From Shigella phage SSP1, in sequence record KY963424: DNA of 64,000 nt. One strand, written 5' to 3'. How positions within the stretch are numbered: the first letter of the stretch is position 1; each line of letters opens with the position of its first letter. A program made the translations under genes and the position numbers. Of this stretch, positions 15,834 to 63,224 are shown piece by piece. The notes below the pieces were generated by a model. The model was given only the letters and a program-made list of their open reading frames with translations. It ran no database searches and was not told the DNA's origin.

Positions 15834-15840
15834 TTTTAGA

Positions 15841-19333: not shown

Positions 19334-19366
19334 ACATTTTTTGAAAACACATTTTCAGAAATTATT

Positions 19367-19972
19367 GTCGGATTTGCACACTGACATAAGTTTAAAAACT
19401 GGTCGGATTTGCACAATTGCCTAAGTTTTTAGGAACATATAATCTCCTGAAAATGCCAGCATTATTTCGGGCCGAAGGCCCATGGTTGCCTGAGTTTTTA
19501 GAGCCACAGAAATTTTCACTTGTCAAGCTATTTTGCCCCATTTAGCAAATAAAATTTTACTTTATCTCCACTAATCTCAAATTAACCCAAATCTTCTCAA
19601 CTCTTCCCCAAAATCCCCACAAATCAGGTGCTCCGCACCAAACATGCGCCCCTCTAGCTTCCCCCCCCCCCCTAATTTTCTCTCGCTCTCTCAACTTCTC
19701 CCCAAACCCACACAATCACACACCCTCTCATCGAAGTCACAAAAATATTCCTGAAACCATAAATCTGTCTCCTAGTAAACTCGTGTCGGATTTGCACATA
19801 CCCCACAGGATTCGAACGCAGTTCGAGATTGCTGGAGTTTTTGGGAAAATTCATTGTCGGATTTGCACACTATAAAAATTTTTCGGGTCGGATTTGCACA
19901 CTACCAAAAATTGTCGGATTCGCACATACACGCCCGCACGTAACACCCGTGGAGCAATGTCGGTTTTGCACA
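19367..19972 (+). repeat. dispersed array of seven copies of 14-mer GTCGGATTTGCACA
   Basis: Exact copies at 19367, 19402, 19785, 19856, 19887; one-mismatch copies at 19913 and 19959; same orientation. Confidence 0.85.
19661..19672 (+). repeat. C12 homopolymer within a G-depleted C/A/T-rich tract
   Basis: Twelve consecutive C; surrounding 19560-19780 has about 6 percent G on + strand. Confidence 0.85.
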
Positions 19973-20161: not shown

Positions 20162-20295
20162 AAGTGAGAAACACTGTTATTTAAGTTATCCACAGACTTA
20201 TCAACAGCACGATTTGACTTGACAAAACCCTAGCCATTTTGAAGCGTTATTAACAGACTTATCCACAGCTTATCCTACTGTATAAATATACAGTA
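20162..20295 (+). repeat. left arm of about 135-bp imperfect inverted repeat carrying DnaA boxes
   Basis: Reverse complement of 23553-23686 aligns with few mismatches; TTATCCACA at 20186-20194 and 20259-20267, TTATCAACA at 20198-20206. Confidence 0.8.
20276..20295. promoter_or_regulatory. LexA (SOS) box-like palindrome TACTGTATAAATATACAGTA
   Basis: 19 of 20 matches to E. coli LexA consensus TACTGTATATATATACAGTA. Confidence 0.55.
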
Positions 20296-23552: not shown

Positions 23553-23572
23553 CCCTGTATATTTATACAGTA
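23553..23572. promoter_or_regulatory. LexA box-like palindrome (CTGTATATTTATACAG core)
   Basis: CTGT-N8-ACAG with AT spacer, 17 of 20 to LexA consensus; inverted copy of the site at 20276-20295. Confidence 0.5.
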
Positions 23573-23686
23573 GGATAACCTGTGGATAACTCTGTGTAAA
23601 AGTCCCCATATCGCCGCCTATTGTGTCAAATTATTTTGTGCTGTGGATAACGTTGTGGATAACTTAAATGATAGTGGTTCTCACTT
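23553..23686 (+). repeat. right arm of inverted repeat carrying DnaA boxes
   Basis: TGTGGATAA at 23581-23589, 23642-23650, 23654-23662; reverse complement matches 20162-20295. Confidence 0.8.
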
Positions 23687-34742: not shown

Positions 34743-34856
34743 ATAAGTATAGGATGGGATACTACTCAGTTGGTATCCCATCCCTGCATTTTAAAATCCC
34801 CTTTACAAATTCGATACGATTATGTATACTATATTCATACAGTTGAGGAGAACACT

Positions 34857-35294
34857 ATGGCAAGCAATGTAAAATATAAACGCGATGCTATATCCCTTAT
34901 GAGAGACGGAATAAAAAGTCAATATAAAAAAGACTCTCAATGTGCTATCTGCGGTTGTGCTGAAGAATTAGAGCTTCATCATTACCATACGGTGTCTCTA
35001 CTAGTTAAAAAATTTGCTAAAGAACTCCAATTGGATTTCACTGACGAAGAAATAGTCCTTTCAAATAGGACGGCATTCTATGATCGATATAGGCATGAGC
35101 TAGTAGAAGACACTGTTACCCTTTGTGTACACCATCACCAATTATTACATAAGGTTTACACAAAAGAACCTCCTTTATTTTCTGCTAATAAGCAAAAAGT
35201 GTGGGTTCAAAAGCAGAAAGACAAATTACAGAATCCTCAAGAAAAGACACAAGTCAAGACTGAAACAAAATCAGGATTCGCAAGGTTCTTATAA
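34857..35294 (+). CDS. HNH endonuclease (terminase/portal-associated)
   Basis: CAICGC...LELHHYH...CVHHHQLLH zinc-binding HNH motif; GAGGAG RBS at internal ATG. Confidence 0.65.
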   Translation: MASNVKYKRDAISLMRDGIKSQYKKDSQCAICGCAEELELHHYHTVSLLVKKFAKELQLDFTDEEIVLSNRTAFYDRYRHELVEDTVTLCVHHHQLLHKVYTKEPPLFSANKQKVWVQKQKDKLQNPQEKTQVKTETKSGFARFL

Positions 35295-37643: not shown

Positions 37644-39020
37644 ATGACTATTGATATTAATAAGCTGAAAGAAGAACTTGGTCTGGGTGATCTGGCTAAA
37701 TCTCTGGAAGGTCTGACCGCTGCTCAGAAAGCTGCTGAAGCTGAACGTATGCGTAAAGAGCAGGAAGAAAAAGAACTGGCCCGTATGAATGACCTGGTTT
37801 CTAAAGCAGTTGGCGAAGATCGTCAGAAACTGGAAGAAGCTCTGACTCTGGTTAAGTCTCTGGACGAGAAATCCAAGAAGAGCGCAGAACTGTTTGCACA
37901 GACTGTAGAAAAACAGCAGGAAACTATTGTTGGTCTCCAGGATGAAATTAAATCTCTGCTGGCAGCTCGTGAAGGACGTTCCTTCGTCGGTGATAGCGTA
38001 GCTAAAGCACTGTACGGTACTCAGGAAAACTTTGAAGATGAAGTTGAAAAACTGGTTCTGTTATCTTATGTAATGGAAAAAGGCGTATTCGAGACCGAGC
38101 ACGGTCAGAGACACCTGAAAGCTGTAAACCAGTCCTCTTCAGTAGAAGTTTCTAGTGAAAGCTATGAAACTATTTTCTCCCAGCGTATTATTCGTGACCT
38201 GCAGAAAGAACTAGTAGTTGGTGCTCTGTTTGAAGAACTGCCAATGTCCAGCAAAATTCTTACTATGCTGGTTGAACCAGATGCTGGTAAAGCTACTTGG
38301 GTAGATGCTAATACATATGGTACTGATGCTACTACTGGTAACGAAGTTAAAGGTGCTCTGACTGAAATTCAGTTCAAAACCTATAAACTGGCTGCTAAGT
38401 CCTTCATTACTGATGAAACTGAAGAAGATGCAATCTTCTCCCTGCTACCATTGCTGCGTAAGCGTCTGATTGAAGCACACGCTGTTTCTATCGAAGAAGC
38501 GTTTATGACTGGTGACGGTACTGGTAAGCCTAAGGGTCTGCTGAAACTGGCTGAAGGCGATAGTGCTAAAGTTATTACTGAAGCTAAAGCTGATGGTTCT
38601 GTTCTAGTAACTGCTAAAACTATCTCTAAACTGCGTCGTAAACTGGGCCGTCATGGTCTGAAACTGAGCAAACTGGTACTTATCGTATCTATGGATGCTT
38701 ACTACGATCTGCTGGAAGATGAAGAATGGCAGGATGTTGCCCAGGTTGGTAATGATGCTGTTAAACTGCAAGGTCAGGTTGGTCGTATTTACGGTCTGCC
38801 GGTTGTAGTTTCTGAGTTCTTCCCGGCTAAAGCTAACTCTGCAGAGTTCGCAGTTATTGTTTATAAAGATAACTTCGTAATGCCGCGTCAGCGTGCTGTT
38901 ACTGTTGAACGTGAGCGCCAAGCTGGTAAACAGCGTGATGCGTACTACGTTACTCAGCGTGTTAACCTGCAACGTTACTTCGAAAACGGCGTTGTATCTG
39001 GTGCTTACGCTGCATCTTAA
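37644..39020 (+). CDS. major capsid protein precursor (pb8-like) with N-terminal scaffolding delta domain
   Basis: 458 aa; coiled-coil-rich first 150 aa; strongly host-optimised codon usage; position after protease. Confidence 0.85.
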   Translation: MTIDINKLKEELGLGDLAKSLEGLTAAQKAAEAERMRKEQEEKELARMNDLVSKAVGEDRQKLEEALTLVKSLDEKSKKSAELFAQTVEKQQETIVGLQDEIKSLLAAREGRSFVGDSVAKALYGTQENFEDEVEKLVLLSYVMEKGVFETEHGQRHLKAVNQSSSVEVSSESYETIFSQRIIRDLQKELVVGALFEELPMSSKILTMLVEPDAGKATWVDANTYGTDATTGNEVKGALTEIQFKTYKLAAKSFITDETEEDAIFSLLPLLRKRLIEAHAVSIEEAFMTGDGTGKPKGLLKLAEGDSAKVITEAKADGSVLVTAKTISKLRRKLGRHGLKLSKLVLIVSMDAYYDLLEDEEWQDVAQVGNDAVKLQGQVGRIYGLPVVVSEFFPAKANSAEFAVIVYKDNFVMPRQRAVTVERERQAGKQRDAYYVTQRVNLQRYFENGVVSGAYAAS

Positions 39021-39041
39021 TACAGGCTTTTCAGCCGATAA

Positions 39042-39065
39042 GGAGAGCTTCGGCTCTCCTTTTTT
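39042..39065 (+). terminator. intrinsic terminator
   Basis: Stem GGAGAGC/GCTCTCC with UUCG tetraloop then TTTTTT. Confidence 0.85.
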
Positions 39066-39079
39066 ATTGGGAAAAATAA

Positions 39080-39592
39080 ATGCAAATCATCACAGCCGAA
39101 GATTATAGATTATATGGTAGCTTAAAACGACCTGAATTAGAATCTGGTGTAGAAATGATGATTACTGCTGCCAATGCGCTGATCACGAGCCTTCTAGGCA
39201 TGGATGATGCTGATGCGGTAGACCAGTTAATCAATACAAAACCTACACGTAGGAAATATTTTCTGAGTTCACCATCTGCTACCTCCGTAACTAAAGTGAC
39301 GATTAATGATAATGAGATTGACCCAGAGCAGTATAAGCTATACTCTGACGGTATTATCCTTCTCAAATTTAATCCTCCAGAAGGTTATATGGATGTAGCA
39401 TATACACAAGGTGGATTTAATCCAGTGCCTGAAGATCTCAAACTTGCAGCGTGTATGCTAGTAGATCATTGGCATAAACAAGATTATCGCCAAGCTAAAA
39501 CAATTGGTGGTGAAACAGTAACCTTCAATAGCACTAAGTCTGGTATTCCAGAGCATATTCGTACTATTATTGAAGTATATAGGAGAGTATAA
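39080..39592 (+). CDS. head completion / head-tail connector protein (putative)
   Basis: 170-aa ORF immediately after capsid gene. Confidence 0.5.
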   Translation: MQIITAEDYRLYGSLKRPELESGVEMMITAANALITSLLGMDDADAVDQLINTKPTRRKYFLSSPSATSVTKVTINDNEIDPEQYKLYSDGIILLKFNPPEGYMDVAYTQGGFNPVPEDLKLAACMLVDHWHKQDYRQAKTIGGETVTFNSTKSGIPEHIRTIIEVYRRV

Positions 39593-40359
39593 TGTCTCTT
39601 TCCGATCTAGCTAAACAAATTATTAAAGAGCAGCTAGATACTGCAGGACGATCTGAAAATAATAAGAATACTGTTGTGTACTCTGTTGAAACAGGGTTAA
39701 AAGATCCTACCAGAGATGGTACTATTGCTCAAGTATCTTTTAAGTTTTCAAAACCCGTATCACAAGATCTTCTTGATGTTAGAACAGCCTCCATACTAAA
39801 AGCTGTATCCTCTAGTTTAGATATTTCAGGAGATTTAGGTGCTCTAGAAAATTTAATACAAGCAACTGCTGGTAAAAAATCTGCTGTAGGTAAAAAACGT
39901 TCTACAGGCAGAGTACAGGTAAACTTTGGAGATCCTAAAGACGTAGAGGATGGATACTCAGGTGCAATAACAGGTGCTTCCGGACGTTTCGTGTCTAATA
40001 GCAATATGAAGGTTATATTAGAGATAGTTGCTAAAGAATACTTAATAAAGGATATGAAAAAGACAGGAGCGCCATTAAAATTTAGAACCGGTCGCTTTGC
40101 AAATTCTCTAAAAATTAAGGATGTTATGCTTAGAGACGCAGAGACTAGTAAAGGTTCTCCTGAATTGAACGTAACATATAATTATATGACTCGTCCATAT
40201 TCTGTGTTCAACCCCGCAGTATCTACATATAGAAGATTATCTCTACGACCTTATCCTGGCGCTAGAAACCCACAAAAACTTATTGGTGAGGCTATAGCAA
40301 AAGCTGCAAGAGACCTGATTCACTCCAGATATAAAATTAAGGTTAATCAAGGAACCTAA
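39592..40359 (+). CDS. neck / tail completion protein (putative)
   Basis: 255-aa ORF in head-tail joining position. Confidence 0.45.
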   Translation: MSLSDLAKQIIKEQLDTAGRSENNKNTVVYSVETGLKDPTRDGTIAQVSFKFSKPVSQDLLDVRTASILKAVSSSLDISGDLGALENLIQATAGKKSAVGKKRSTGRVQVNFGDPKDVEDGYSGAITGASGRFVSNSNMKVILEIVAKEYLIKDMKKTGAPLKFRTGRFANSLKIKDVMLRDAETSKGSPELNVTYNYMTRPYSVFNPAVSTYRRLSLRPYPGARNPQKLIGEAIAKAARDLIHSRYKIKVNQGT

Positions 40360-40362
40360 TAA

Positions 40363-40848
40363 ATGGACCATAGAACAAGTATTGCACAAGCTATGGTTGA
40401 CCGAATCTCTAAACAAATGGATGGTTCTCAACCTGACGAATATTTTAATAACCTATACGGAAACGTTTCTCGTCAAACTTATAAATTTGAGGAAATACGA
40501 GAGTTTCCTTATGTGGCAGTTCATATCGGAACTGAAACTGGGCAGTATCTTCCTTCAGGCCAACAGTGGATGTTTTTAGAACTTCCAATCCTGGTGTACG
40601 ATAAAGAGAAAACAGACATTCAAGAGCAACTTGAAAAACTCGTAGCGGATATAAAAACCGTTATTGACACAGGTGGAAATTTAGAATATACTGTTAGTAA
40701 ACCTAATGGATCGACCTTCCCATGTGAGGCAACTGATATGATCATTACATCAGTTAGTACAGATGAGGGTCTACTGGCCCCATATGGTTTAGCAGAAATA
40801 AATGTAACAGTGAGGTATCAGCCTCCACGTAGGTCACTTCGCAGATAA
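40363..40848 (+). CDS. tail terminator protein (putative)
   Basis: 161-aa ORF directly upstream of tail tube gene. Confidence 0.5.
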   Translation: MDHRTSIAQAMVDRISKQMDGSQPDEYFNNLYGNVSRQTYKFEEIREFPYVAVHIGTETGQYLPSGQQWMFLELPILVYDKEKTDIQEQLEKLVADIKTVIDTGGNLEYTVSKPNGSTFPCEATDMIITSVSTDEGLLAPYGLAEINVTVRYQPPRRSLRR

Positions 40849-40874
40849 GTTACAGATTAGGAGAAAATAATTAA

Positions 40875-42281
40875 ATGTCTTTACAACTATTACGTAATAC
40901 TCGAATCTTCGTGTCTACGGTTAAGACCGGTCACAATAAGACCAACACGCAAGAGATTCTAGTTCAGGATGATATTTCTTGGGGTCAGGACAGTAACTCA
41001 ACAGATATTACTGTTAATGAAGCTGGTCCGCGTCCAACTCGTGGTTCTAAACGTTTTAATGACTCTTTAAACGCAGCTGAGTGGAGTTTCTCTACTTATA
41101 TCCTGCCATATAAAGATAAAACTACTAACAAACAGATTGTTCCTGACTATATGTTATGGCATGCACTTTCTAGTGGTAAAGCTCTTAACCTAGAAGGTGA
41201 TACAGGAGCACACAATAACGAAGCTAACTTTATGGTTAACTTCAAAGATAACTCTTATCACGAGTTAGCAATGTTACATATTTATATTCTGACCGATAAA
41301 GCATGGAGTTATATCGATTCCTGTCAGATTAATCAGGCAGAAGTTAACGTTGATATTGAAGATATTGGTCGTGTAACTTGGTCTGGTAATGGTAATCAGC
41401 TTATTCCTCTGGATGCTCAGCCATTTGATCCTGATACTGTAGGTATTGATGATGAAACTTATATGACTATTCAGAGTTCTTATATCAAGAACAAATTGAC
41501 TATCCTGAAAATTAAGGATATGGATTCTGATAAGGCATATGATATCCCTATTACTGGCGGTACTTTCACCATTAATAACAATATCACGTACCTAACCCCG
41601 AATATTATGTCCCGTGTAAATATTCCGATCGGTTCATTTACTGGTGCGTTTGAATTAACTGGTTCACTAACTGCCTATCTAAATGATAAATCTCTTGGTT
41701 CTATGGAGCTGTACAAAGATCTTATCAAGACTCTGAAGGTAGTTAACAAGTTTGAAATTGCACTTATCCTTGGTGGTGAGTATGATGATGAACGCCCGGC
41801 AGCTGTGTTAGTTGCTAAACAGGCGCATGTTAACATTCCTACTATTGAGACTGATGATGTACTTGGTACTTCAGTAGAGTTTAAAGCTATTCCTACAGAT
41901 CTGGATACTGGTGATGAAGGTTATCTTGGTTTCTCTAGCAAGTATACTAAAACCACTGTGGCTAATCTGATTGCTACAGGAGATGGCGCTAAAACTCCAC
42001 CAAAACTAGTTGAATCAATCACAGTTAAATCTGCTGGTAATGTCACTTCAGTAGCGAACAGTAATACTCTACAGATGTCTGTTGAAGTAACTCCGCCAGA
42101 TGCTACTAATAGTGCCGTAACCTGGTCTATTTCTAGTGGTGATGCAGCTACAATTGATCCAGAGTCTGGTCTATTAACTGCGGACACTACTAAGACAGGC
42201 TCTGTTACTGTCAAAGCTGTAGCTAAAGACGGTTCTGGTGTAGAAGGTACTAAGAGCATTACAGTTACTGCTGGTGGCTAA
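40875..42281 (+). CDS. major tail tube protein (pb6-like) with C-terminal Ig-like domain
   Basis: 468 aa; C-terminal Big_2-like segment VTSVANSNTLQMSVEVTPPDATNSAVTWSISSGDAATIDPESGLLTA. Confidence 0.8.
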   Translation: MSLQLLRNTRIFVSTVKTGHNKTNTQEILVQDDISWGQDSNSTDITVNEAGPRPTRGSKRFNDSLNAAEWSFSTYILPYKDKTTNKQIVPDYMLWHALSSGKALNLEGDTGAHNNEANFMVNFKDNSYHELAMLHIYILTDKAWSYIDSCQINQAEVNVDIEDIGRVTWSGNGNQLIPLDAQPFDPDTVGIDDETYMTIQSSYIKNKLTILKIKDMDSDKAYDIPITGGTFTINNNITYLTPNIMSRVNIPIGSFTGAFELTGSLTAYLNDKSLGSMELYKDLIKTLKVVNKFEIALILGGEYDDERPAAVLVAKQAHVNIPTIETDDVLGTSVEFKAIPTDLDTGDEGYLGFSSKYTKTTVANLIATGDGAKTPPKLVESITVKSAGNVTSVANSNTLQMSVEVTPPDATNSAVTWSISSGDAATIDPESGLLTADTTKTGSVTVKAVAKDGSGVEGTKSITVTAGG

Positions 42282-42285
42282 TTAA

Positions 42286-43185
42286 ATGTACTACTCTCTA
42301 ATGAGAGAGTCAAAAGTTATAGTTGAGTATGATGGTAGGGCATTTCATTTTGATGCCCTATCAAACTATGATATACAGACTTCCTACGAGGAATTCAAGA
42401 CTCTTCGTAGGACTGTTCATCGTAGAACTAACTATGCAGACTCTATTATAAATGCTCAAACTCCCTCTTCTATCTCTCTAGCAGTAAATTTCAGTAATAC
42501 TCTTACTGAGGCTAACTTCTTTGAATGGTTAGGTTTTGATAGAAAAGGTAATACTTTCTTACTCCCACTATATAGTAGTAATATTGAACCTATTATGTTC
42601 AATATCTATATAGTAAATAAAGATAATAACTGTGTATATTTTGAAAACTGTTATGTATCTACGGTAGATTTTTCTTTAGATAAGAACATACCAATTCTTA
42701 ATGTTGGTATTGAGTCTGGGAAATTCTCAGAGGTATCTACCTATAGAGAAGCAGCTTCTATTATACAGGGTGAAGTAATGTCTTACAGCCCAGTAATAGC
42801 TTCTACTAATGGCAGCATCTTACCCGGTCTTATTTCTGCCTCTTTATCTTTCCAACAGCAGTGCTCCTGGAGAGAGGATAAGAGTGTTTTTGATATAAAT
42901 AAAATTTATAATAATAAAAGAGCCTATGTAACTGAAATGAATGCTTCGGCAACCATCTCTCTATACTACTTAAAACGTTTTGCAGGAGATATGGTTTATA
43001 ATATAGAACCGGAGATAGATATACCTTTAACGATAAGAAATAATAATATTTCTATAGATTTTCCTTCAGCACGTATTACAAAACGCCTAGAGTTCTCAGA
43101 TGTGTATAGAGTTGAGTGGGATATTATACCTACTGCTTCTTCAGACCCAGTGAGAATAGATTTCTTTGGAGAAATTAAAAAATGA
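42286..43185 (+). CDS. hypothetical tail-associated protein
   Basis: 299-aa ORF between tail tube and tape measure genes. Confidence 0.45.
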   Translation: MYYSLMRESKVIVEYDGRAFHFDALSNYDIQTSYEEFKTLRRTVHRRTNYADSIINAQTPSSISLAVNFSNTLTEANFFEWLGFDRKGNTFLLPLYSSNIEPIMFNIYIVNKDNNCVYFENCYVSTVDFSLDKNIPILNVGIESGKFSEVSTYREAASIIQGEVMSYSPVIASTNGSILPGLISASLSFQQQCSWREDKSVFDINKIYNNKRAYVTEMNASATISLYYLKRFAGDMVYNIEPEIDIPLTIRNNNISIDFPSARITKRLEFSDVYRVEWDIIPTASSDPVRIDFFGEIKK

Positions 43186-43586
43186 TTAATTTAAAAGATA
43201 TTACTCTTGATACTCGTACTATTACTCTTTCCTACCCAGGTATGCCGAACTTTAAACTAGAACTTAACTATATGTCTCGTGCTACCTCTAAACGTGTTAT
43301 TTCTTCTGCTAAACGCGATGAATGGGTTAACGGTACTTTGATTCAGGTGCAGGATGATGATAAGTTCATTGAAGCCTTTGTTGACGCAGCTATTAAAGGC
43401 TGGACTGGCTTAACTGTTGGTGACGTTGAAAAACTGATGCTGATTGAAACAGACGCTGATCCTACTACTGAAGTTCCTTTTAGCCGCGATAATGCTGTAA
43501 TGCTCATGCAGAACTCTGCTGCGTTTGATTCTTGGATCAACCAGACAGTGTTCCACTTAGACACTTTTCGTAGCCCAAAAGCGTAA
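43182..43586 (+). CDS. putative tail assembly chaperone
   Basis: 134-aa acidic protein upstream of tape measure gene. Confidence 0.45.
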   Translation: MINLKDITLDTRTITLSYPGMPNFKLELNYMSRATSKRVISSAKRDEWVNGTLIQVQDDDKFIEAFVDAAIKGWTGLTVGDVEKLMLIETDADPTTEVPFSRDNAVMLMQNSAAFDSWINQTVFHLDTFRSPKA

Positions 43587-43647
43587 AGAACTCCTAGATG
43601 CTGTTGCTGATTTTGCAGATAAATGTATTAAAAGCTCAGCATCTAAA

Positions 43648-44016
43648 ATGACCAAACAACAATATTTGATACTTTGTGAGTCAATGGGTATAGAACCTGA
43701 TCCTAAGGCTATGCCCGTTGAACTCGAAGATTTTCCACCTATTGTATCTATTAGTATGAATATTTATAACAGTCTGATTGACTGTTTCATACCTGGTGAC
43801 TTTCCTATTTTTATAGGTAAGGATAAGGCTGCATTAGGTGTTTTATTTGATATTTATGGGATTACTGATCCTATAGAAAAAGAATTTGTTCTACACATTA
43901 TCAATATATTTGATGCTAAAGCTGTAGATGCTGCACGTAAGCGTGCTGAGAAGCATAAACCGCAAAACGGAAGGATTCCTAACGTTAAGCCACATGCTAG
44001 ATCTCGTGCACGGTAA
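43648..44016 (+). CDS. putative tail assembly protein
   Basis: 122-aa ORF immediately upstream of tape measure gene. Confidence 0.4.
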   Translation: MTKQQYLILCESMGIEPDPKAMPVELEDFPPIVSISMNIYNSLIDCFIPGDFPIFIGKDKAALGVLFDIYGITDPIEKEFVLHIINIFDAKAVDAARKRAEKHKPQNGRIPNVKPHARSRAR

Positions 44017-44051
44017 AAGTTTCCTCCAATGGGCGTTCCACGATGAGGCTT

Positions 44052-44082
44052 GGCTCTGGGTGATTTGCCCAGAGCCTTTTTT
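44052..44082 (+). terminator. intrinsic terminator
   Basis: 9-bp stem GGCTCTGGG/CCCAGAGCC then TTTTTT. Confidence 0.85.
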
Positions 44083-44099
44083 ATTGGGAAAAATAAAAC

Positions 44100-47000
44100 A
44101 TGACTGATAAGCTAATACGAGAATTACTAATAGACGTTAAACAGAAGGGGGCAACTCGTACTGCAAAGTCTATTGAAAACGTATCTGATGCGTTGGAAAA
44201 TGCTGCTGCTGCTTCCGAACTGACAAATGAGCAGTTAGGTAAAATGCCCAAAACCCTTTACTCCATTGAGAGGGCAGCAGATAGAGCAGCGAAAAGTCTT
44301 ACTAAAATGCAAGCTAGTAGGGGTATGGCTGGTATCACTAAATCTATTAATGATATTGGTGATAAACTAGACTACCTAGCTATCCAACTTATTGAAGTAA
44401 CAGATAAACTAGAAATTGGATTCGATGGAGTTTCTAGATCTGTTAAAGCAATGGGTAATGATGTTGCAGCTGCAACAGAGAAAGTTCAAGATAGATTGTA
44501 TGATACTAATAGAGCATTAGGTGGCACAGCTAGAGGTTTTAATGACACTGCTGGTGCCGCTGGTAGAGCTTCTAGAGCTATTGGTAATACTTCTGGTTCA
44601 GCGCGTGGTGCAACTCGTGATTTTGCGGCAATGGCTAAGATCGGTGGTAGTCTACCTATTATGTACGCAGCTCTTGCTTCCAACATCTTCGTTTTGCAAT
44701 CAGCATTTGAACAACTTAAACTAGGTGATCAGCTAAATCGTCTAGAAAAATTTGGTGTTATAGTAGGTACTCAGACAGGTACTCCTGTTCAGACCCTTGC
44801 TAGATCACTACAAGAAGCTGCTGGATATGCTATTTCTTTTGAGGAAGCGATGAGACAGGCGTCTTCAGCATCTGCTTATGGATTTGATGCCGAACAACTT
44901 AATAAATTTGGTTTAGTAGCTCGTCGTGCTGCTGCTGTTCTTGGCGTTGATATGACTGATGCACTTAACCGTGTAATTAAGGGTGTATCTAAACAAGAAA
45001 TCGAACTTCTGGATGAACTTGGTGTCACCATCCGTCTTAATGATGCATACGCTGATTATGTTAAACAGTTAAATGCTGCAAACACAGGTATAACATATAA
45101 TGTTAATAATCTTACCACTTTCCAGAAGCAACAAGCATACGCTAACGCGGTAATTGCTGAATCTACTAAGCGTTTTGGCTACCTAGATGAAGTACTACGT
45201 GCAACTCCGTGGGAGCAATTTGCTGCTAATGCAGATGCTGCACTAAGAAAAATACAACAAGCTGCTGCTAAGTATTTAGGGCCAGTAATTGATGCTATCA
45301 ACACAGTATTTTATACATCTCAGGCTTCTATATCTGCTGAAGCAGCTAGAGCTCAAGAAAAAACTAATAGACAGATAGACCCTACCAACGTTGGTGCTGT
45401 TGCTTTAAGTTTAGCTGCTTCTGAAGAAGGCTATAATAAAGCTCTAGATATGTATAAGGAATCTCTTGATAAGCGTAATAAGCTAAAATCTGAGTTCGAT
45501 AAACGAATGGAACAAGCAGATTTCTATACAAAACTAGCTATACGTCAGGTTGGAGAAGGTATTCCTGTTGGTATTGCAGCAGCAGGTGCCTCGGAGGCCA
45601 ATAAGCAATTTGTAGCAGAAACTGCAGCTATGGGTCTACAAGTAACTAGACTTGGTAAGGAAGTAGAGGATTCTACAGAGAATCTCAATGCTTGGAAATC
45701 AGCGTATCAAGCTGCTGGGGCTGCTGCTGCAAAAGCTAATCCAGAGTTTCAGAAGCAAATTAATCTACAGAGAGATACTACTGATCCTGATGCTGTATAC
45801 GATTTTAACTCTACTGTATTAAAAGGACTAACTGAGCAGCAGAAAGCGTACAATCAGACTAAGAAAACTGCTAGTGACTTAGCTAATGATATACAGAACG
45901 TTGCTCAGAATACAGATACTGCTGCTAAAACTAGTGCTACTTTAGCAGATGCTATAAAAAACATAGAATCTCTATCTCTAGGTACTGGTAAGAGTGCTGA
46001 TGAATATGTTAAAAATCTTAACCTAGGCTACAATACTCTGTCTGAAATGAAAACTGCGTCTCAGGCCTTATCTGAGTATGTTAAACTAACTGGTAATGAA
46101 ACTAAAAATCAGTTAGCAGTTCAACAGAAGATAGCTGATGTATATAACCAAACTAAGGATAAAGAAAAAGCACAGGAAGCTGGTAGGCGTTTAGAACTCC
46201 AACAGTTAGAAGAGCAAGAAGCTGCTTTACGCCGTGTTCTTCAAACAAACCAGGGAAATAAAGCTGTTGAGAAAGAAATTGAAAAAATTCAGCTGGAGAA
46301 ACTTAAGCTTACCAATCAGGGCATGGAAGCTCAGAAGAAAGTTAAGGATTATACAGATAAAATTCTGGGTGTAGATCGTGAGATAGCTCTTCTGAATGAC
46401 CGTACTATGACTAGCACTCAGTATAGATTAGCACAGTTAAAGTTAGAACTAACCATAGAGGAGGAAAAATACGAGTGGTATTTAAAACAAGCGGATAAAC
46501 AAAAAGAGGCAGAACAGTCTAGACGTGCTCAAGCACAGATAAGTAGAGAGTTATGGGAAGCAGAGAAACAAGCTACTGCTACTCATGTATCCGCCCTTAT
46601 GGATGCCTTAGAGGTTAGCCAAACGCAGAGAAATGTCACTGGTCAGTCCCAGATTCTCACTGAAAGGTTATCTATTCTGCAGCAGCAGCTGGAGCTGTCT
46701 AAAGGTAATACTGAAGAAGAAATTAAATATCGTAATGAGATTTATAAAACTTCAGCAGCCTTAGAACAGCTTAGGAAACAGAGGGATAGCCAGATGCAGC
46801 AACAGGTAGGGTCTTCTGTAGGTGCTGTATATACTCCTACAACTGGACTATCTGGAGAAGATAAAGATTTTGCTGATATGCAAAATAGAATGGCTTCTTA
46901 TGACCAGGCAATCTCTAAATTATCTGAGCTAAACTCTGAAGCAACCGCTGTGGCTCAAAGTATGGGTAATCTAACTAATGCCATGATCCAGTTCTCCCAG

Positions 47001-47780
47001 GGATCTTTAGATACTACTTCCCTGATTGCTTCTGGTATGCAGACTGTGGCCTCTATGATTCAATATAGTACTAGTCAACAGGTTAGTGCAATTGATCAGG
47101 CTATTGCAGCAGAGCAAAAACGCGATGGTAAATCAGAAGCATCTAAAGCTAAGTTGAAGAAGCTGGAAGCTGAAAAGCTGAAGATTCAACAAGACGCAGC
47201 TAAGAAGCAGATTATCATCCAAACTGCAGTAGCTGTAATGCAGGCGGCAACAGCTGTTCCATACCCGTTCTCTATCCCTCTGATGGTAGCGGCAGGTTTA
47301 GCGGGTGCTCTGGCCCTCGCCCAAGCATCTTCTGCATCGAGTATGTCGAGTATTGCTGATTCGGGAGCTGATACAACTAGTTACTTAGCCTTAGGAGAGC
47401 GCCAAAAGAATATAGATGTGTCCATGTCTGCTAATGCAGGTGAACTATCTTATATCCGTGGCGATAAAGGCATAGGCGGTGCTAATTCTTTCGTTCCTCG
47501 TGCTGAGGGTGGTAACATGTACCCAGGGGTTAGCTATCAAATGGGTGAGCATGGTACAGAAGTAGTTACACCTATGGTTCCTATGAAAGCTACACCTAAT
47601 GATGAGCTAAAAACCTCATCTAACTCAACTTCAGGAAGACCCATCATCCTGAATATTAGTGCTATGGATGCTGCAAGTTTTAGAGAGTTTGCTTCTAGTA
47701 ATAGTAGTGCTCTAAGAGACGCAGTAGAATTAGCTCTGAATGAGAACGGTGCTAGTCTGAAAACATTAGGAAATTCTTAA
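44100..47780 (+). CDS. tape measure protein (pb2-like)
   Basis: 1226 aa, Ala/Gln-rich coiled-coil composition, hydrophobic segment near C-terminus, upstream of distal tail protein. Confidence 0.85.
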   Translation: MTDKLIRELLIDVKQKGATRTAKSIENVSDALENAAAASELTNEQLGKMPKTLYSIERAADRAAKSLTKMQASRGMAGITKSINDIGDKLDYLAIQLIEVTDKLEIGFDGVSRSVKAMGNDVAAATEKVQDRLYDTNRALGGTARGFNDTAGAAGRASRAIGNTSGSARGATRDFAAMAKIGGSLPIMYAALASNIFVLQSAFEQLKLGDQLNRLEKFGVIVGTQTGTPVQTLARSLQEAAGYAISFEEAMRQASSASAYGFDAEQLNKFGLVARRAAAVLGVDMTDALNRVIKGVSKQEIELLDELGVTIRLNDAYADYVKQLNAANTGITYNVNNLTTFQKQQAYANAVIAESTKRFGYLDEVLRATPWEQFAANADAALRKIQQAAAKYLGPVIDAINTVFYTSQASISAEAARAQEKTNRQIDPTNVGAVALSLAASEEGYNKALDMYKESLDKRNKLKSEFDKRMEQADFYTKLAIRQVGEGIPVGIAAAGASEANKQFVAETAAMGLQVTRLGKEVEDSTENLNAWKSAYQAAGAAAAKANPEFQKQINLQRDTTDPDAVYDFNSTVLKGLTEQQKAYNQTKKTASDLANDIQNVAQNTDTAAKTSATLADAIKNIESLSLGTGKSADEYVKNLNLGYNTLSEMKTASQALSEYVKLTGNETKNQLAVQQKIADVYNQTKDKEKAQEAGRRLELQQLEEQEAALRRVLQTNQGNKAVEKEIEKIQLEKLKLTNQGMEAQKKVKDYTDKILGVDREIALLNDRTMTSTQYRLAQLKLELTIEEEKYEWYLKQADKQKEAEQSRRAQAQISRELWEAEKQATATHVSALMDALEVSQTQRNVTGQSQILTERLSILQQQLELSKGNTEEEIKYRNEIYKTSAALEQLRKQRDSQMQQQVGSSVGAVYTPTTGLSGEDKDFADMQNRMASYDQAISKLSELNSEATAVAQSMGNLTNAMIQFSQGSLDTTSLIASGMQTVASMIQYSTSQQVSAIDQAIAAEQKRDGKSEASKAKLKKLEAEKLKIQQDAAKKQIIIQTAVAVMQAATAVPYPFSIPLMVAAGLAGALALAQASSASSMSSIADSGADTTSYLALGERQKNIDVSMSANAGELSYIRGDKGIGGANSFVPRAEGGNMYPGVSYQMGEHGTEVVTPMVPMKATPNDELKTSSNSTSGRPIILNISAMDAASFREFASSNSSALRDAVELALNENGASLKTLGNS

Positions 47781-47787
47781 AACTGGA

Positions 47788-47810
47788 GGAGGACTTTGAG
47801 TCCTCCTTTT
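47788..47810 (+). terminator. intrinsic terminator
   Basis: Stem GGAGGACT/AGTCCTCC then TTTT. Confidence 0.8.
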
Positions 47811-47889
47811 CTTTATGGAAAAATAAAAATTTCTTGATAAAATTTTCTAATACTATTATAATATTGTTATTAAAGAGGAGAAATTAACT

Positions 47890-48504
47890 ATGAGATTACC
47901 AGACCCATACACGAATCCGGAACTTTCAGGCTTAGGATTCGAAAGTGTTAACCTGATTGATAATGACCCAGTAATTCGTGATGAGTTACCAAATGGTAAA
48001 GTTAACGAAGTTAAGGTATCCGCTCAATACTGGGGTATAAATATTTCTTACCCAGAATTATTTCCAGATGAATATAGTGTTCTAGATGCTTTTATTCTAG
48101 AATACAAAAGGACTGGTGGTTATATAGATGTTATATTACCACAATACGAAGCTTTTAGAGTTAGAGGTAATACTAGTCTAGTAAATATACCTGCTGGACA
48201 GAAGGGTTCTAATATAACTATGGATACAAAAGGACTTCTTACAGGTACTCCAAAACCGGGGGATCTATTTAAGCTGTCTAACCACCCAAAAGTATATAAA
48301 ATAACATCATTTAACAAATCAGGTAATACATGGTCCATAAACCTATACCCTGATTTATTTATAACTACTACTGGAGCGGAGAAGCCAGTATTTAATGGAA
48401 TACTATTTAGAACAAAACTCATGAATGGTGATGCTTTTGGATCTACACTAAATAATAACGGAACATACTCCAACATCTCATTAAATTTACGGGAAAGTCT
48501 ATGA
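47890..48504 (+). CDS. distal tail protein (pb9-like)
   Basis: 204 aa as recalled for T5 pb9; positioned between tape measure and hub. Confidence 0.75.
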   Translation: MRLPDPYTNPELSGLGFESVNLIDNDPVIRDELPNGKVNEVKVSAQYWGINISYPELFPDEYSVLDAFILEYKRTGGYIDVILPQYEAFRVRGNTSLVNIPAGQKGSNITMDTKGLLTGTPKPGDLFKLSNHPKVYKITSFNKSGNTWSINLYPDLFITTTGAEKPVFNGILFRTKLMNGDAFGSTLNNNGTYSNISLNLRESL

Positions 48505-61385: not shown

Positions 61386-63224
61386 TTATTCTAAGTAGGA
61401 AAATCCTTCTGCATCTTTTTTGACAGTAATCTTATGGGCCAATGGATGCGTATGCCCATGAGAAACAATGATAGAATTTAGACTTTCTTCCTCATTTAAT
61501 AATTCAACAAGGGTGTCAAGTCCTTTAGTATCAATAAAGCTAATTACTTCATCAAGGAATAGAAGATTAATATTAACTTTACTAATAGATGTTAGTAGCA
61601 TTCGAATAGCTAACAGAGTTGCTAGGTTGATTCTACTTTGCTGACCAGTAGAGCAGTTCTCCATACTGGTACGGTTTCCATCATTGAAGATTACTACTTG
61701 TAATTTCGTTTCATCAAGCTCAAATCCAAGTGCGAACTTACCGCCAGTCATAATAGAAAGGTATTTATTGATAAGCTCTTCAAATACTTTCACACTATGC
61801 TCTAGTTTATACCCTACCAGATTTTTCAATGCGGCGATCAGAATATCGAGATCAGCAACAGCTTCTGATACTCCATCTAGTTTGGAAGTAATCTCAGACA
61901 TTTCTGCCTCAGCTTTCTCAATCTGTTCTAGTTTCGCTCTATATTTTGCATTGGCTAATTCAACATTTGCATTATGCTCTTTGGCAATTGCAACCTTAGA
62001 ACGTCCGTCAGCGATTTCCTGTTCTAGTTGTCGGATTTGCACCTGTAGGTTTTGCACATTGAGTTCTTCAAAAGAGGCATCACTCATTGAATTTTTGAAC
62101 TCGTCTCTAGCTGCTACTGCTTTATCCAAAGCATCCTTTGCTCTGATATACGTAGTGTACTCAAGTTGTTCTTTCTTCAGCTGTTCTAGCTTGGTTTCAA
62201 GAGATTGCTTCTCTTTGAACAGAGGATCATATTCTGTTCTAGCCATATCCATTGCTTTTTGAGCAGCAGTTATATCCAGATGAGTACCACAAGTAGGACA
62301 TTCAGTATTTGAAGCCTCTTGCTTGAACTTCTGATAACGTTTCTTGACTTCGCCCGCACGTGAGGTCACAATTGTTAGGTCACGCGTAACACTCGAGATC
62401 TCTTCATTTTGGTCGGTGGGCGCAGGTAAATTTTTGAAAGGCTCGAAAGATTGTTCGGCAACTTGTACAGCTTTGTCCAAATTACGCAATTTAGTAATAT
62501 TAGCCTCTTGAGACTTGGCTAATGCCGCCTTAATTTTCGATTCAGTAAGTTCTTGTGCTAAGGGTTCTTCGTCAAACTCAGGCACTTCGACTGGTTCCTG
62601 CAAAGTTCCCAGATTATTCTTTCCATTAAGGATTTTCGTAATTACAGCCATTTGGCCCTGCAAATTATTCAAGGTATTTGCTATTTCTTTACGGTCGGCC
62701 TTAATAGTTTCTGACATTTCTTTGTACTGTTCTTGATTGAACAAGTTAACAAGAAAAGCCTTACGTGTTGCATCTGTTGCTTTTAGAAAATCTAGGTTGG
62801 AACCCACTGATTGATAAATTAGTTTGGTGAATGTTTGGAAGTCACCACCCATAATCTCTTCAATCATCTTGTATGTTTGAGTTGCCGTGTGGCCACTAAT
62901 ATCTTCTCCATTCTTAATAAGAGTTACTTTAGCAGTTGATTTAACTACTTTATGCAATTCATACTCATCTTCATCTTTTGAGAAGTAAGCGTGCATATCA
63001 TACTCTTTTTTCGGAGAAGACCAGGAGAACAGAGCATCCTTCTTAATACCACGTGAGTTCTTATTATAAAATAGTTCTTCAATAACAGTAGCAATAGTGG
63101 ATTTTCCTAACCCATTGCCACCAATTAGTTGGGTAACTGGATTCTTATCGAAATGAATTACGATGTCCTTACCGTAAGACATAACGTTACTAAATTTTAG
63201 TGTCTTAATTGTAATCTTTGACAT
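61386..63224 (-). CDS. D13: SbcC/Rad50-like recombination ATPase
   Basis: Walker A GGNGLGKST, long coiled-coil middle, CxxC zinc hook (CPTCG), C-terminal signature/Walker B LLFLDEV; start set at internal Met. Confidence 0.85.
   Translation of the reverse strand: MSKITIKTLKFSNVMSYGKDIVIHFDKNPVTQLIGGNGLGKSTIATVIEELFYNKNSRGIKKDALFSWSSPKKEYDMHAYFSKDEDEYELHKVVKSTAKVTLIKNGEDISGHTATQTYKMIEEIMGGDFQTFTKLIYQSVGSNLDFLKATDATRKAFLVNLFNQEQYKEMSETIKADRKEIANTLNNLQGQMAVITKILNGKNNLGTLQEPVEVPEFDEEPLAQELTESKIKAALAKSQEANITKLRNLDKAVQVAEQSFEPFKNLPAPTDQNEEISSVTRDLTIVTSRAGEVKKRYQKFKQEASNTECPTCGTHLDITAAQKAMDMARTEYDPLFKEKQSLETKLEQLKKEQLEYTTYIRAKDALDKAVAARDEFKNSMSDASFEELNVQNLQVQIRQLEQEIADGRSKVAIAKEHNANVELANAKYRAKLEQIEKAEAEMSEITSKLDGVSEAVADLDILIAALKNLVGYKLEHSVKVFEELINKYLSIMTGGKFALGFELDETKLQVVIFNDGNRTSMENCSTGQQSRINLATLLAIRMLLTSISKVNINLLFLDEVISFIDTKGLDTLVELLNEEESLNSIIVSHGHTHPLAHKITVKKDAEGFSYLE

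Follow-up and report, generated by a model that had tools for sequence, protein, structure and literature searches.

What is the short sequence that recurs in the late region of Shigella phage SSP1 (sequence record KY963424), each time just past a strong terminator, and does it act as a single regulatory element? An earlier note on a 64,000-nucleotide stretch of this genome (the window, whose coordinates are used throughout) had described three copies, here termed S1, S2, and S3, and proposed that they may constitute a late promoter or an anti-termination element for a modified RNA polymerase. Reading of the sequence bore out the positions of the three copies and their location on the plus strand, and at each of them the terminator scan was positive for a hairpin followed by a T-run, in keeping with the description of the motif as lying directly after a strong terminator:

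39064-39079, plus strand: S1 motif, TTATTGGGAAAAATAA; ATG at 39080
44081-44098, plus strand: S2 motif, TTATTGGGAAAAATAAAA; ATG at 44100
47812-47829, plus strand: S3 motif, TTTATGGAAAAATAAAAA; ATG 60 nt downstream, at 47890

Our analysis indicates that the motif is very probably a composite, in which the U-tract of a terminator is joined to a ribosome-binding site at S1 and S2 or to the upstream part of a late promoter at S3; it is made of known, already annotated signals and is in that sense ordinary. S1 and S2 share an exact 23-mer, CCTTTTTTATTGGGAAAAATAAA (39058-39080 and 44075-44097), which is among the very few non-palindromic repeats of at least 20 nt in the window, and a 17-mer allowed up to three mismatches gave four matches where 0.77 were expected. 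S3 has only the 11-mer GGAAAAATAAA and a T-rich lead in common with the other two sites. This 11-mer occurs exactly three times in the window, at S1, S2, and S3, and was not found in the remaining ~48 kb of the genome of the closest relative; three copies of an 11-mer are nothing unusual in themselves, as 124 canonical 11-mers are present at least three times in the window. Because triple 11-mers are common, the significance of S3 rests on its position directly 3' of a terminator, and S3 is the weakest member of the set.

The first half of the motif belongs to an intrinsic terminator at all three sites, where a G+C-rich hairpin starting 5-35 nt past a stop codon is followed by a U-rich tract of ~8-9 nt:

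39040-39061, plus strand: S1 hairpin AAGGAGAGC-TTCG-GCTCTCCTT, 20 nt after the stop codon of the major head protein gene (scan, RNA fold)
39060-39068, plus strand: S1 U-tract TTTTTTATT, the first half of the motif (read from the sequence)
44052-44076, plus strand: S2 hairpin, after a tail assembly chaperone gene (scan, folds)
44077-44085, plus strand: S2 U-tract TTTTTTATT (read from the sequence)
47785-47809, plus strand: S3 hairpin, after the gene for pb2 (scan, fold)
47807-47816, plus strand: S3 U-tract TTTTCTTTAT (read from the sequence)

The hairpin regions at S1-S3 fold with about -17 to -23 kcal/mol, and the record of phage T5 (NC_005859) has a terminator annotated at all three homologous positions in near-identical sequence (features 101563-101586, 96553-96587, and 92087-92113), the one at S1 as putative rho-independent. 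Further comparison drew on GenBank records of six phages from distant genera (Providencia PR1, Proteus RP7, Serratia Slocum, and Vibrio phi 3, Thalassa, and pVp-1) and on Klebsiella phage sequences (loci L029/L030) from IMG/VR, a source that added few distant relatives. The S2 stem, GGCTCTGGG/CCCAGAGCC in the window, reads GGCCTAGGG/CCCTAGGCC in the Klebsiella phage and GCTCTGAGG/CCTCAGAGC in Vibrio phi 3, revealing compensatory changes, and the S1 and S3 stems of Vibrio and other genera differ in sequence with their pairing kept. Within phages of enteric hosts the S1 stem is invariant, and compensation is uninformative there. A bidirectional terminator was rejected, as the minus-strand hairpins at S1 and S2 have no following T-run.

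At S1 and S2 the second half of the motif, GGGAAAAATAA(A), consists of a weak Shine-Dalgarno sequence and an A-rich spacer that lead to the next start codon:

39069-39079, plus strand: S1 weak Shine-Dalgarno GGGA and A-rich spacer AAAATAA, before the head-tail adaptor ATG at 39080
44086-44099, plus strand: S2 weak Shine-Dalgarno GGGA and A-rich spacer AAAATAAAAC, before the pb2 ATG at 44100

GGGA lies 7 and 10 nt before the ATG at S1 and S2, respectively, and at both sites forms a duplex of -4.2 kcal/mol with the anti-Shine-Dalgarno sequence, qualifying as a Shine-Dalgarno in pairing and distance. Pairing of this strength is similar to that of other low-copy late genes (portal, -4.1 kcal/mol; pb3, -4.3 kcal/mol and also GGGAAA), while the strongest sites, those of terS, terL, and the distal tail protein gene, reach -9 to -11.6 kcal/mol. 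The adaptor start codon agrees with an N-terminal alignment in which Met1 aligns family-wide and with the head completion protein chains in the PDB, which have 170 residues, and the record of Serratia phage Slocum labels GGA at both S1 and S2 as ribosome_binding_site. These observations suggest that the second half of the motif at S1 and S2 is the translation initiation region of the next gene, with GGGA as its predicted ribosome-binding sequence and an unstructured A-rich spacer. The motif had earlier been argued to be not simply a ribosome-binding site, since it abuts the ATG twice and once sits 60 nt upstream of it; this argument fails at S1 and S2, where the half with GGGA and the A-rich spacer behaves like a ribosome-binding site for the gene next to it.

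Phage T5 carries the same motif as the window at S1, where the sequence from the hairpin through the motif to the ATG is identical, and at S3, which is identical through the motif and the -35 hexamer and has one difference in the spacer. T5.141, an HNH endonuclease gene, interrupts S2 of T5 at the exact boundary of TTTTTTATT and GGG, and the T-tract, ending TTATT, stays with the terminator. The T5 pb2 gene is preceded by acAGGAAAAcattagATG, which keeps AGGAAAAcattagATG (AGGAAAA 9 nt before the ATG) with the rest of the motif gone, such that only GGA survives at Shine-Dalgarno distance. Because this insertion splits S2, the two halves of the motif are separable, each staying with its own neighbour. 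T5 thus differs from SSP1 in having the HNH gene between terminator and pb2 and in lacking the composite motif there, and the repeated junction is not described in T5 records.

Among the close relatives, the S1 T-run reaches T13 in L012, and in L020 and L024 ATT is duplicated and GGG changed to AGG, with the GG-to-ATG distance unmoved in each case. GGG is reduced to GG in L006 and L009, some close relatives have insertions upstream of the S1 hairpin, and the position of GGAAAAATAA-ATG relative to the ATG is fixed in all of them. Across the Demerecviridae, the hairpin-to-GG spacing varies from 8 to 16 nt, whereas the GG-to-ATG distance is held at 6-11 nt. The core itself occurs as GG, AGG, GGAGG, GGGG, or GGAG at S1, all 6-8 nt from the ATG, and as GGA, GGGT, AGGTG, AGGAG, or GGAG at S2 of relatives, 6-11 nt from the ATG. 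These variants are always complementary to the anti-Shine-Dalgarno sequence, some of them much more strongly (GGAGG, AGGAG), in phages whose adaptor protein is only ~30% identical. Complementarity and distance to the ATG are therefore what is kept, while the exact sequence and the upstream distance are not, the pattern by which a Shine-Dalgarno evolves. The tails of the more distant phages read as follows:

Providencia PR1: S1 tail TTTTTTATTGGGAAAAATAAATG; S2 tail TTTTTTATTGGAAAAATATAATG
Proteus RP7: S1 tail ..GGGTAAAATAAATG; S2 tail TTTTTTATAGGTGAAATTCATATG
Serratia Slocum: S1 tail TTTTTATTGGGAAAAATTCATG; S2 tail TTTTTTATTGGGTAAAATAAATG
Klebsiella phage: S1 tail ..GGGTAAAATATG; S2 tail ..TTGGAAAAAATCATG
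Vibrio phi 3: S1 tail TTTTTTATTGGAGGTAATAAAATG; S2 tail TTTTTATTAGGAGAAAACTCATAATG
Vibrio Thalassa: S1 tail TTTTTCTTTATGGGGAATACGATG; S2 tail TTTTTTCGTATGGAGAAAACAATG
Vibrio pVp-1: S1 tail TTTTTGTTTATGGAGAACAAGATG; S2 tail TTTTTTCGTATGGAGAAAACAATG

Free-standing genes of endonuclease type are also inserted at S1 in L006, L009, and L024, there between the head protein stop codon and the terminator, while the T5 insert at S2 (L001 30480-30590) lies between U-tract and ribosome site; terminator/ribosome-site junctions appear to be preferred insertion points for such genes.

At S3 the motif runs from the terminator into a sigma-70 promoter with both hexamers and 17-bp spacing:

47817-47833, plus strand: two A-tracts, GGAAAAATAAAAATTTC, occupying -52 to -36 of the late promoter, where an UP element would lie
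47834-47862, plus strand: core sigma-70 promoter TTGATA-17-TATAAT, equivalent to T5 late promoter P-G25, matching the consensus at 11 of 12 positions
47873-47892, plus strand: strong Shine-Dalgarno AAGAGGAG and distal tail protein ATG; anti-Shine-Dalgarno duplex -9.1 kcal/mol

The motif spans -57 to -40 of this promoter, the core promoter begins 5 nt past it, and transcription is predicted to start near 47869. In NC_005859 the feature 'promoter P-G 25' (92013-92087) starts at the T of TTATGGAAAAATAAAAA and ends 2 nt before the ATG, with the terminator feature abutting it. Primer extension data from T5 place P-G25 and P-J5 transcripts, present at 30 min, among the late ones; all T5 gene classes use the sigma-70 holoenzyme, and late genes are preceded by strong sigma-70 promoters (Klimuk et al., PMC7472727). 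The legend of Figure S5 in the same paper states that -10, -35, and UP elements are marked in T5 promoters. The identity of P-G25 and its late timing belong to T5 itself and would apply to SSP1 by homology. All relatives have a terminator at S3 and, behind it, a near-consensus sigma-70 promoter whose upstream region carries an A4-6 tract at about -46 to -40, and TGG is not kept: TGGAAAAATAAA is found at S3 only in T5-like and, partly, in Klebsiella phages, the latter retaining TTTTTGGAA, and S3 of Slocum, RP7, PR1, phi 3, Thalassa, and pVp-1 has no motif. Tracts of the AAAAATTT type precede most T5-type promoters of the genome, one early promoter reading AGAAAAATAAAAATTTTAG-TTGCTA. The proximal subsite of the UP element has the consensus AAAAAARNR at -46 to -38, where ATAAAAATT of S3 matches 6 of the 8 specified positions; the distal subsite (GGAAAAA, -52 to -46) has no match. 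The proposal of a late promoter thus holds in one respect, as S3 lies inside late promoter P-G25, and falls short in two, as S1 and S2 have no promoter and P-G25 is an ordinary sigma-70 promoter, not a modified-polymerase motif. Further along the same leader, ATTAAAGAGGAGAAATTAACTATG (47866-47892) is letter for letter the ribosome-site string printed in 13 papers, which we take to describe pQE/ASKA-type expression constructs.

The same junction was found outside the T5-like phages. Scanning of IMG/VR with TTTTTATTGGRWAAAATAAA returned two sites per T5-like genome and 18 unrelated contigs, in 7 of which a G+C-rich hairpin abuts the T-run, several with an ATG 0-1 nt past the motif. Genes downstream in the unrelated contigs include those for a tape measure protein, a prohead protease/major head fusion, and a tail fibre, with a UvsX-like recombinase further off; a hairpin with TTTTTTATTGGRWAAAATAAA(A)TG precedes tape measure, tail fibre, and prohead protease genes in L051, L101, and L102, which are unrelated to T5. 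This points to one compact terminator/ribosome-site design, reached by convergence or spread. The early region of the window has a similar junction at 15838 (hairpin, TTTTGTGTTTCA, AGGA, ATATAAT, ATG), and the terminator/ribosome-site junction is a generic design.

Several points weigh against the composite reading. We infer both termination and its efficiency at S1-S3 from sequence, and our literature search found no Term-seq, in vitro, or transcript-end data for T5-like phages; likewise, we infer that the adaptor gene and pb2 depend on read-through. GGGA is a weak Shine-Dalgarno, and in the T5 record AY587007 a feature named 'putative late promoter T5P40' covers the S1 terminator together with the motif and reaches 41 nt into the adaptor open reading frame (ORF). 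The exact 11-mer, GG included, is present at S3 despite the absence of an ATG there, which constraints on terminators and ribosome sites do not explain. Finally, the S1 hairpin is invariant to a degree that is unusual for a terminator and that generic terminator/ribosome-site constraints leave unexplained.

This last point also bears on another explanation. The intergenic regions of S1-S3 are 94-100% conserved within T5-like genera, versus 82-89% for the adjacent adaptor gene DNA, and PR1, RP7, Slocum, and the Klebsiella phage have 88-100% identity over the 41 nt that lead up to the adaptor ATG, as against 57-75% in their flanking coding DNA. The S1 hairpin GGAGAGCTTCGGCTCTCC with its tail (39040-39079) is 100% identical to that of Providencia PR1 and 88-95% identical to those of the Proteus, Serratia, and Klebsiella phages. 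It is a C(UUCG)G tetraloop stem that is unchanged in phages of enteric hosts, whereas the S2 hairpin drifts with compensatory changes. A second unusually conserved sequence precedes the S2 terminator:

44021-44051, plus strand: conserved non-coding element TTTCCTCCAATGGGCGTTCCACGATGAGGCTT, 31 nt, between the chaperone stop codon and the S2 terminator

This element is unique in the window and nearly invariant in the Demerecviridae of enteric hosts, and Vibrio phages retain its core, TCCTC..GGGC.TTCCACGAG; an Rfam scan of 38500-48500 gave no match to it. A coding role was rejected, as all frames are broken by stop codons or by 1-nt indels between relatives. The S1/S2 junction, and especially the S1 hairpin, could accordingly be a sequence-specific RNA operator through which a factor from phage or host links termination/read-through or mRNA stability to translation of the adaptor and tape measure genes, with the 44021-44051 element included, although we regard this as unlikely. 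Under the composite reading, the identity of S1 and S2 would instead come from purifying selection acting strongly on a junction in which terminator and ribosome site are packed very closely.

The GG at S3 would be accounted for if the sequence after the U-tract (GGGAAAAATAAA; GG, then an A/T-rich duplex) were a DNA-level terminator enhancer common to the three sites. Pause sites have a consensus of a pyrimidine at -1 and G at +1; a G after a pyrimidine would strengthen the pause where the U-tract ends, and release would be helped by downstream DNA that melts readily. A T-tract, (A)T(T), GG, and an A-rich run do occur at the same distance from the hairpin at 3 of 3 sites, and the TTTTTGGAA kept at S3 of the Klebsiella phage is as expected of an enhancer. 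However, in other strong terminators of the window (8228, 10732, and 59348 on the minus strand) the T-run is not followed by GG, the six distant phages do without the motif at S3, and in the S1 variants it is relative to the hairpin that GG shifts, not relative to the ATG. A terminator-enhancing role of GG is thus disfavoured, and we consider it improbable. The 11-mer at S3, including its GG, is best read as shared composition or ancestry: the partial match of S3 would reflect the same T-tract-then-A-rich composition and possibly a shared ancestry with S1 and S2.

An RNA-level element acting in read-through transcripts is very improbable. Pairing between U-tract and A-tract could show or mask the Shine-Dalgarno, the U-rich and (ARN)n sequence could recruit ribosomal protein S1 or Hfq, or it could be an RNase E site at which cleavage would separate a stable upstream mRNA from the downstream mRNA. 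U-rich leaders are targets of ribosomal protein S1, AAA-AAU-AAA fits an ARN repeat, and pairing of the U-tract with the A-rich run recurs in minimum-free-energy folds, which leave GGG in the loop in T5-like phages and the Shine-Dalgarno partly paired in Vibrio phages. These A-U hairpins are marginal, however, and expected for any T-run that precedes an A-run; with the Shine-Dalgarno placed now in the loop, now in the stem, depending on the phage, there is no consistent conserved structure and no Rfam match, and a conserved U-tract/A-tract hairpin was rejected as marginal and inconsistent between clades. At S3 such an element is impossible, as the terminated and the P-G25-initiated RNAs never hold both halves.

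That S1 and S2 are late promoters is extremely improbable. The motif would serve as an upstream or -35-like element, possibly for a modified polymerase, with transcripts beginning early in the coding sequence of the adaptor or pb2 gene. Besides the T5P40 annotation, the resemblance of the S3 motif to the A-rich upstream region of a real late promoter speaks for this idea, as does TTGGGA, which as read from the sequence matches 4 of 6 positions of the -35 hexamer. However, T5P40 was paired with the truncated start of ORF137, 26 codons inside a gene whose full N-terminus is conserved from Met1 and whose PDB chains have 170 residues, and PR1 and RP7, in which the motif is kept, do not share the AT-rich adaptor stretch on which it was based (TATAGATTATAT, encoding DYRLY). 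A transcript starting downstream of the motif at S1 or S2 would lose the ATG. Our promoter scan, with a threshold of at least 9 of 12 hexamer positions, found no promoter-like site after S1 or S2, and no sigma-70-like promoter on the plus strand within ~70 nt after either; candidate -35/-10 pairs after the motif, or a -10 inside it (AAAAAT with TTCGGC as -35), were examined by eye and by scan and none was credible. Sigma-70 promoters serve T5 late genes (PMC7472727), and those of the window other than P-G25, namely the oad promoter, TTTACA-17-TATACT at 34802, and the P-J5 equivalent, have no motif:

40664-40692, plus strand: TTGACA-17-TATACT inside the tail terminator gene, equivalent to T5 late promoter P-J5 (promoter scan; T5 annotates P-J 5 in the homologous gene); without the motif

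The motif is thus not at every late unit, as a late promoter for a modified polymerase would be, and at S1 and S2 there is no room for one before the ATG. The suggestion of an anti-termination RNA element finds no support, because such an element must be transcribed before the terminator that it suppresses, while the motif begins in or after the U-tract, past the release point, and has no stable structure and no Rfam match (the only hit in an E-value scan of 38500-48500 was a chance snoRNA match, E 0.96).

The composite reading places the three junctions in the late gene order of T5, which comparison with the T5 record showed to be kept in the window. Many T5-like phages (Demerecviridae) show 94-96% identity to region 38000-48500, whose closest match is Salmonella phage STP-SP2 at ~96% identity:

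37644-39020: major head protein gene (stop codon 39018-39020), preceded by the receptor-binding protein, terminase, portal, and protease genes
39080-39592: head-tail adaptor gene, followed by the tail completion and tail terminator protein genes
ending at 44016: tail tube pb6 gene, then two tail assembly chaperone genes (stop codon 44014-44016)
44100-47780: tape measure protein pb2 gene (stop codon 47778-47780)
47890: ATG of the distal tail protein gene, followed by the tail tip genes

In the mechanism that we propose, polymerases from the oad and 34802 promoters would mostly stop at S1, after the major head gene, and read-through would supply the adaptor, tail completion, and tail terminator genes as far as P-J5. 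P-J5 would drive the tube and chaperone genes, most of this transcription would stop at S2, and read-through would supply pb2; S3 would end the pb2 unit, with its A-tracts acting as an A-rich, UP-like upstream region of P-G25, from which transcription would restart for the tail-tip genes. The terminators would thereby end the abundant major-head-protein, tail-tube/chaperone, and pb2 messages. Because neither the adaptor nor the tape measure gene has its own promoter, both would be made only by read-through, and a strong terminator combined with a weak ribosome site would hold the amounts of these low-copy virion proteins far under those of the major proteins encoded upstream. Only a modest role in translation is expected of AAAAATAAA.

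T-phi of phage T7 is a leaky internal terminator that lies after the major capsid gene 10 and sets stoichiometry. The SSP1 layout is like T-phi in that a terminator directly follows the most abundant structural gene and promoterless low-copy genes downstream need read-through; unlike T-phi, which acts on T7 RNA polymerase, the SSP1 terminators would act on the host sigma-70 polymerase, and their read-through is a prediction. That leaky terminators balance phage gene expression is established for T7, as cited in PMC9163698. The likeness of S3 to an UP element of the rrnB P1 type lies in the position of its A-tracts and in the proximal, but not the distal, match given above, whereas S1 and S2 have no core promoter. 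T4 late promoters have the sequence TATAAATA and are used with gp55, and lambda nut and HK022 put are anti-termination sites; to all of these the SSP1 junctions are alike only in their setting, among late structural genes and adjacent terminators. Unlike at T4 late promoters, there is no T4-like -10 motif at S1-S3 and other late promoters have no motif, and unlike nut and put, the S1-S3 motif is downstream, not upstream, of terminators. As in promoter-coupled terminators (Fletcher et al., bioRxiv 10.64898/2026.08.19.745784), S3 puts a terminator and the next promoter into one short intergenic region between tandem related genes; S3 differs from them in that the predicted distance is ~55 bp and the UP-like region comes after the T-tract.

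Elsewhere in the window, a Shine-Dalgarno is lacking before the ATG (43648) of the ORF for the second tail assembly chaperone (-0.1 kcal/mol). The reading frame of this ORF is open from ~43561 and, lying in +1 (or -2), overlaps the last part of the ORF for the first chaperone close to the sequence CCCAAAA (43574-43580), which suggests that the chaperones may form a programmed frameshift fusion (43561-43650). After the large terminase gene, 34752-34860 holds a 13-bp hairpin without a good T-run, TTTACA-17-TATACT (34802-34830), and GAGGAG-ATG at 34857; because the promoter and GAGGAG-ATG follow it, the listed TTG start of the nicking-endonuclease homologue at 34770 is probably wrong. In the tRNA/early region, 12-17-mers of the GTCGGATTTGCACA type occur in five or six copies within ~540 bp (19364-19900), with one more at 62030, and could have a regulatory or origin-like function. 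The two arms of a 25-nt inverted repeat (ATCCTACTGTATAAATATACAG...) lie at 20270-20294 and 23555-23579, ~3.3 kb apart.

For the biology of T5-like phages, the sequence anatomy of the motif, its pattern of conservation, and the separability of its halves describe a layout of late expression in which terminators would follow the major genes, weak ribosome sites would be pressed onto their U-tracts, and P-G25 would restart transcription. The old annotation of T5P40 as a putative late promoter, which rested on a truncated ORF, is corrected. The value of these results is mostly for annotation, with little beyond, although a specific regulator could lie behind the invariant S1 hairpin or the conserved sequence that precedes the S2 terminator.

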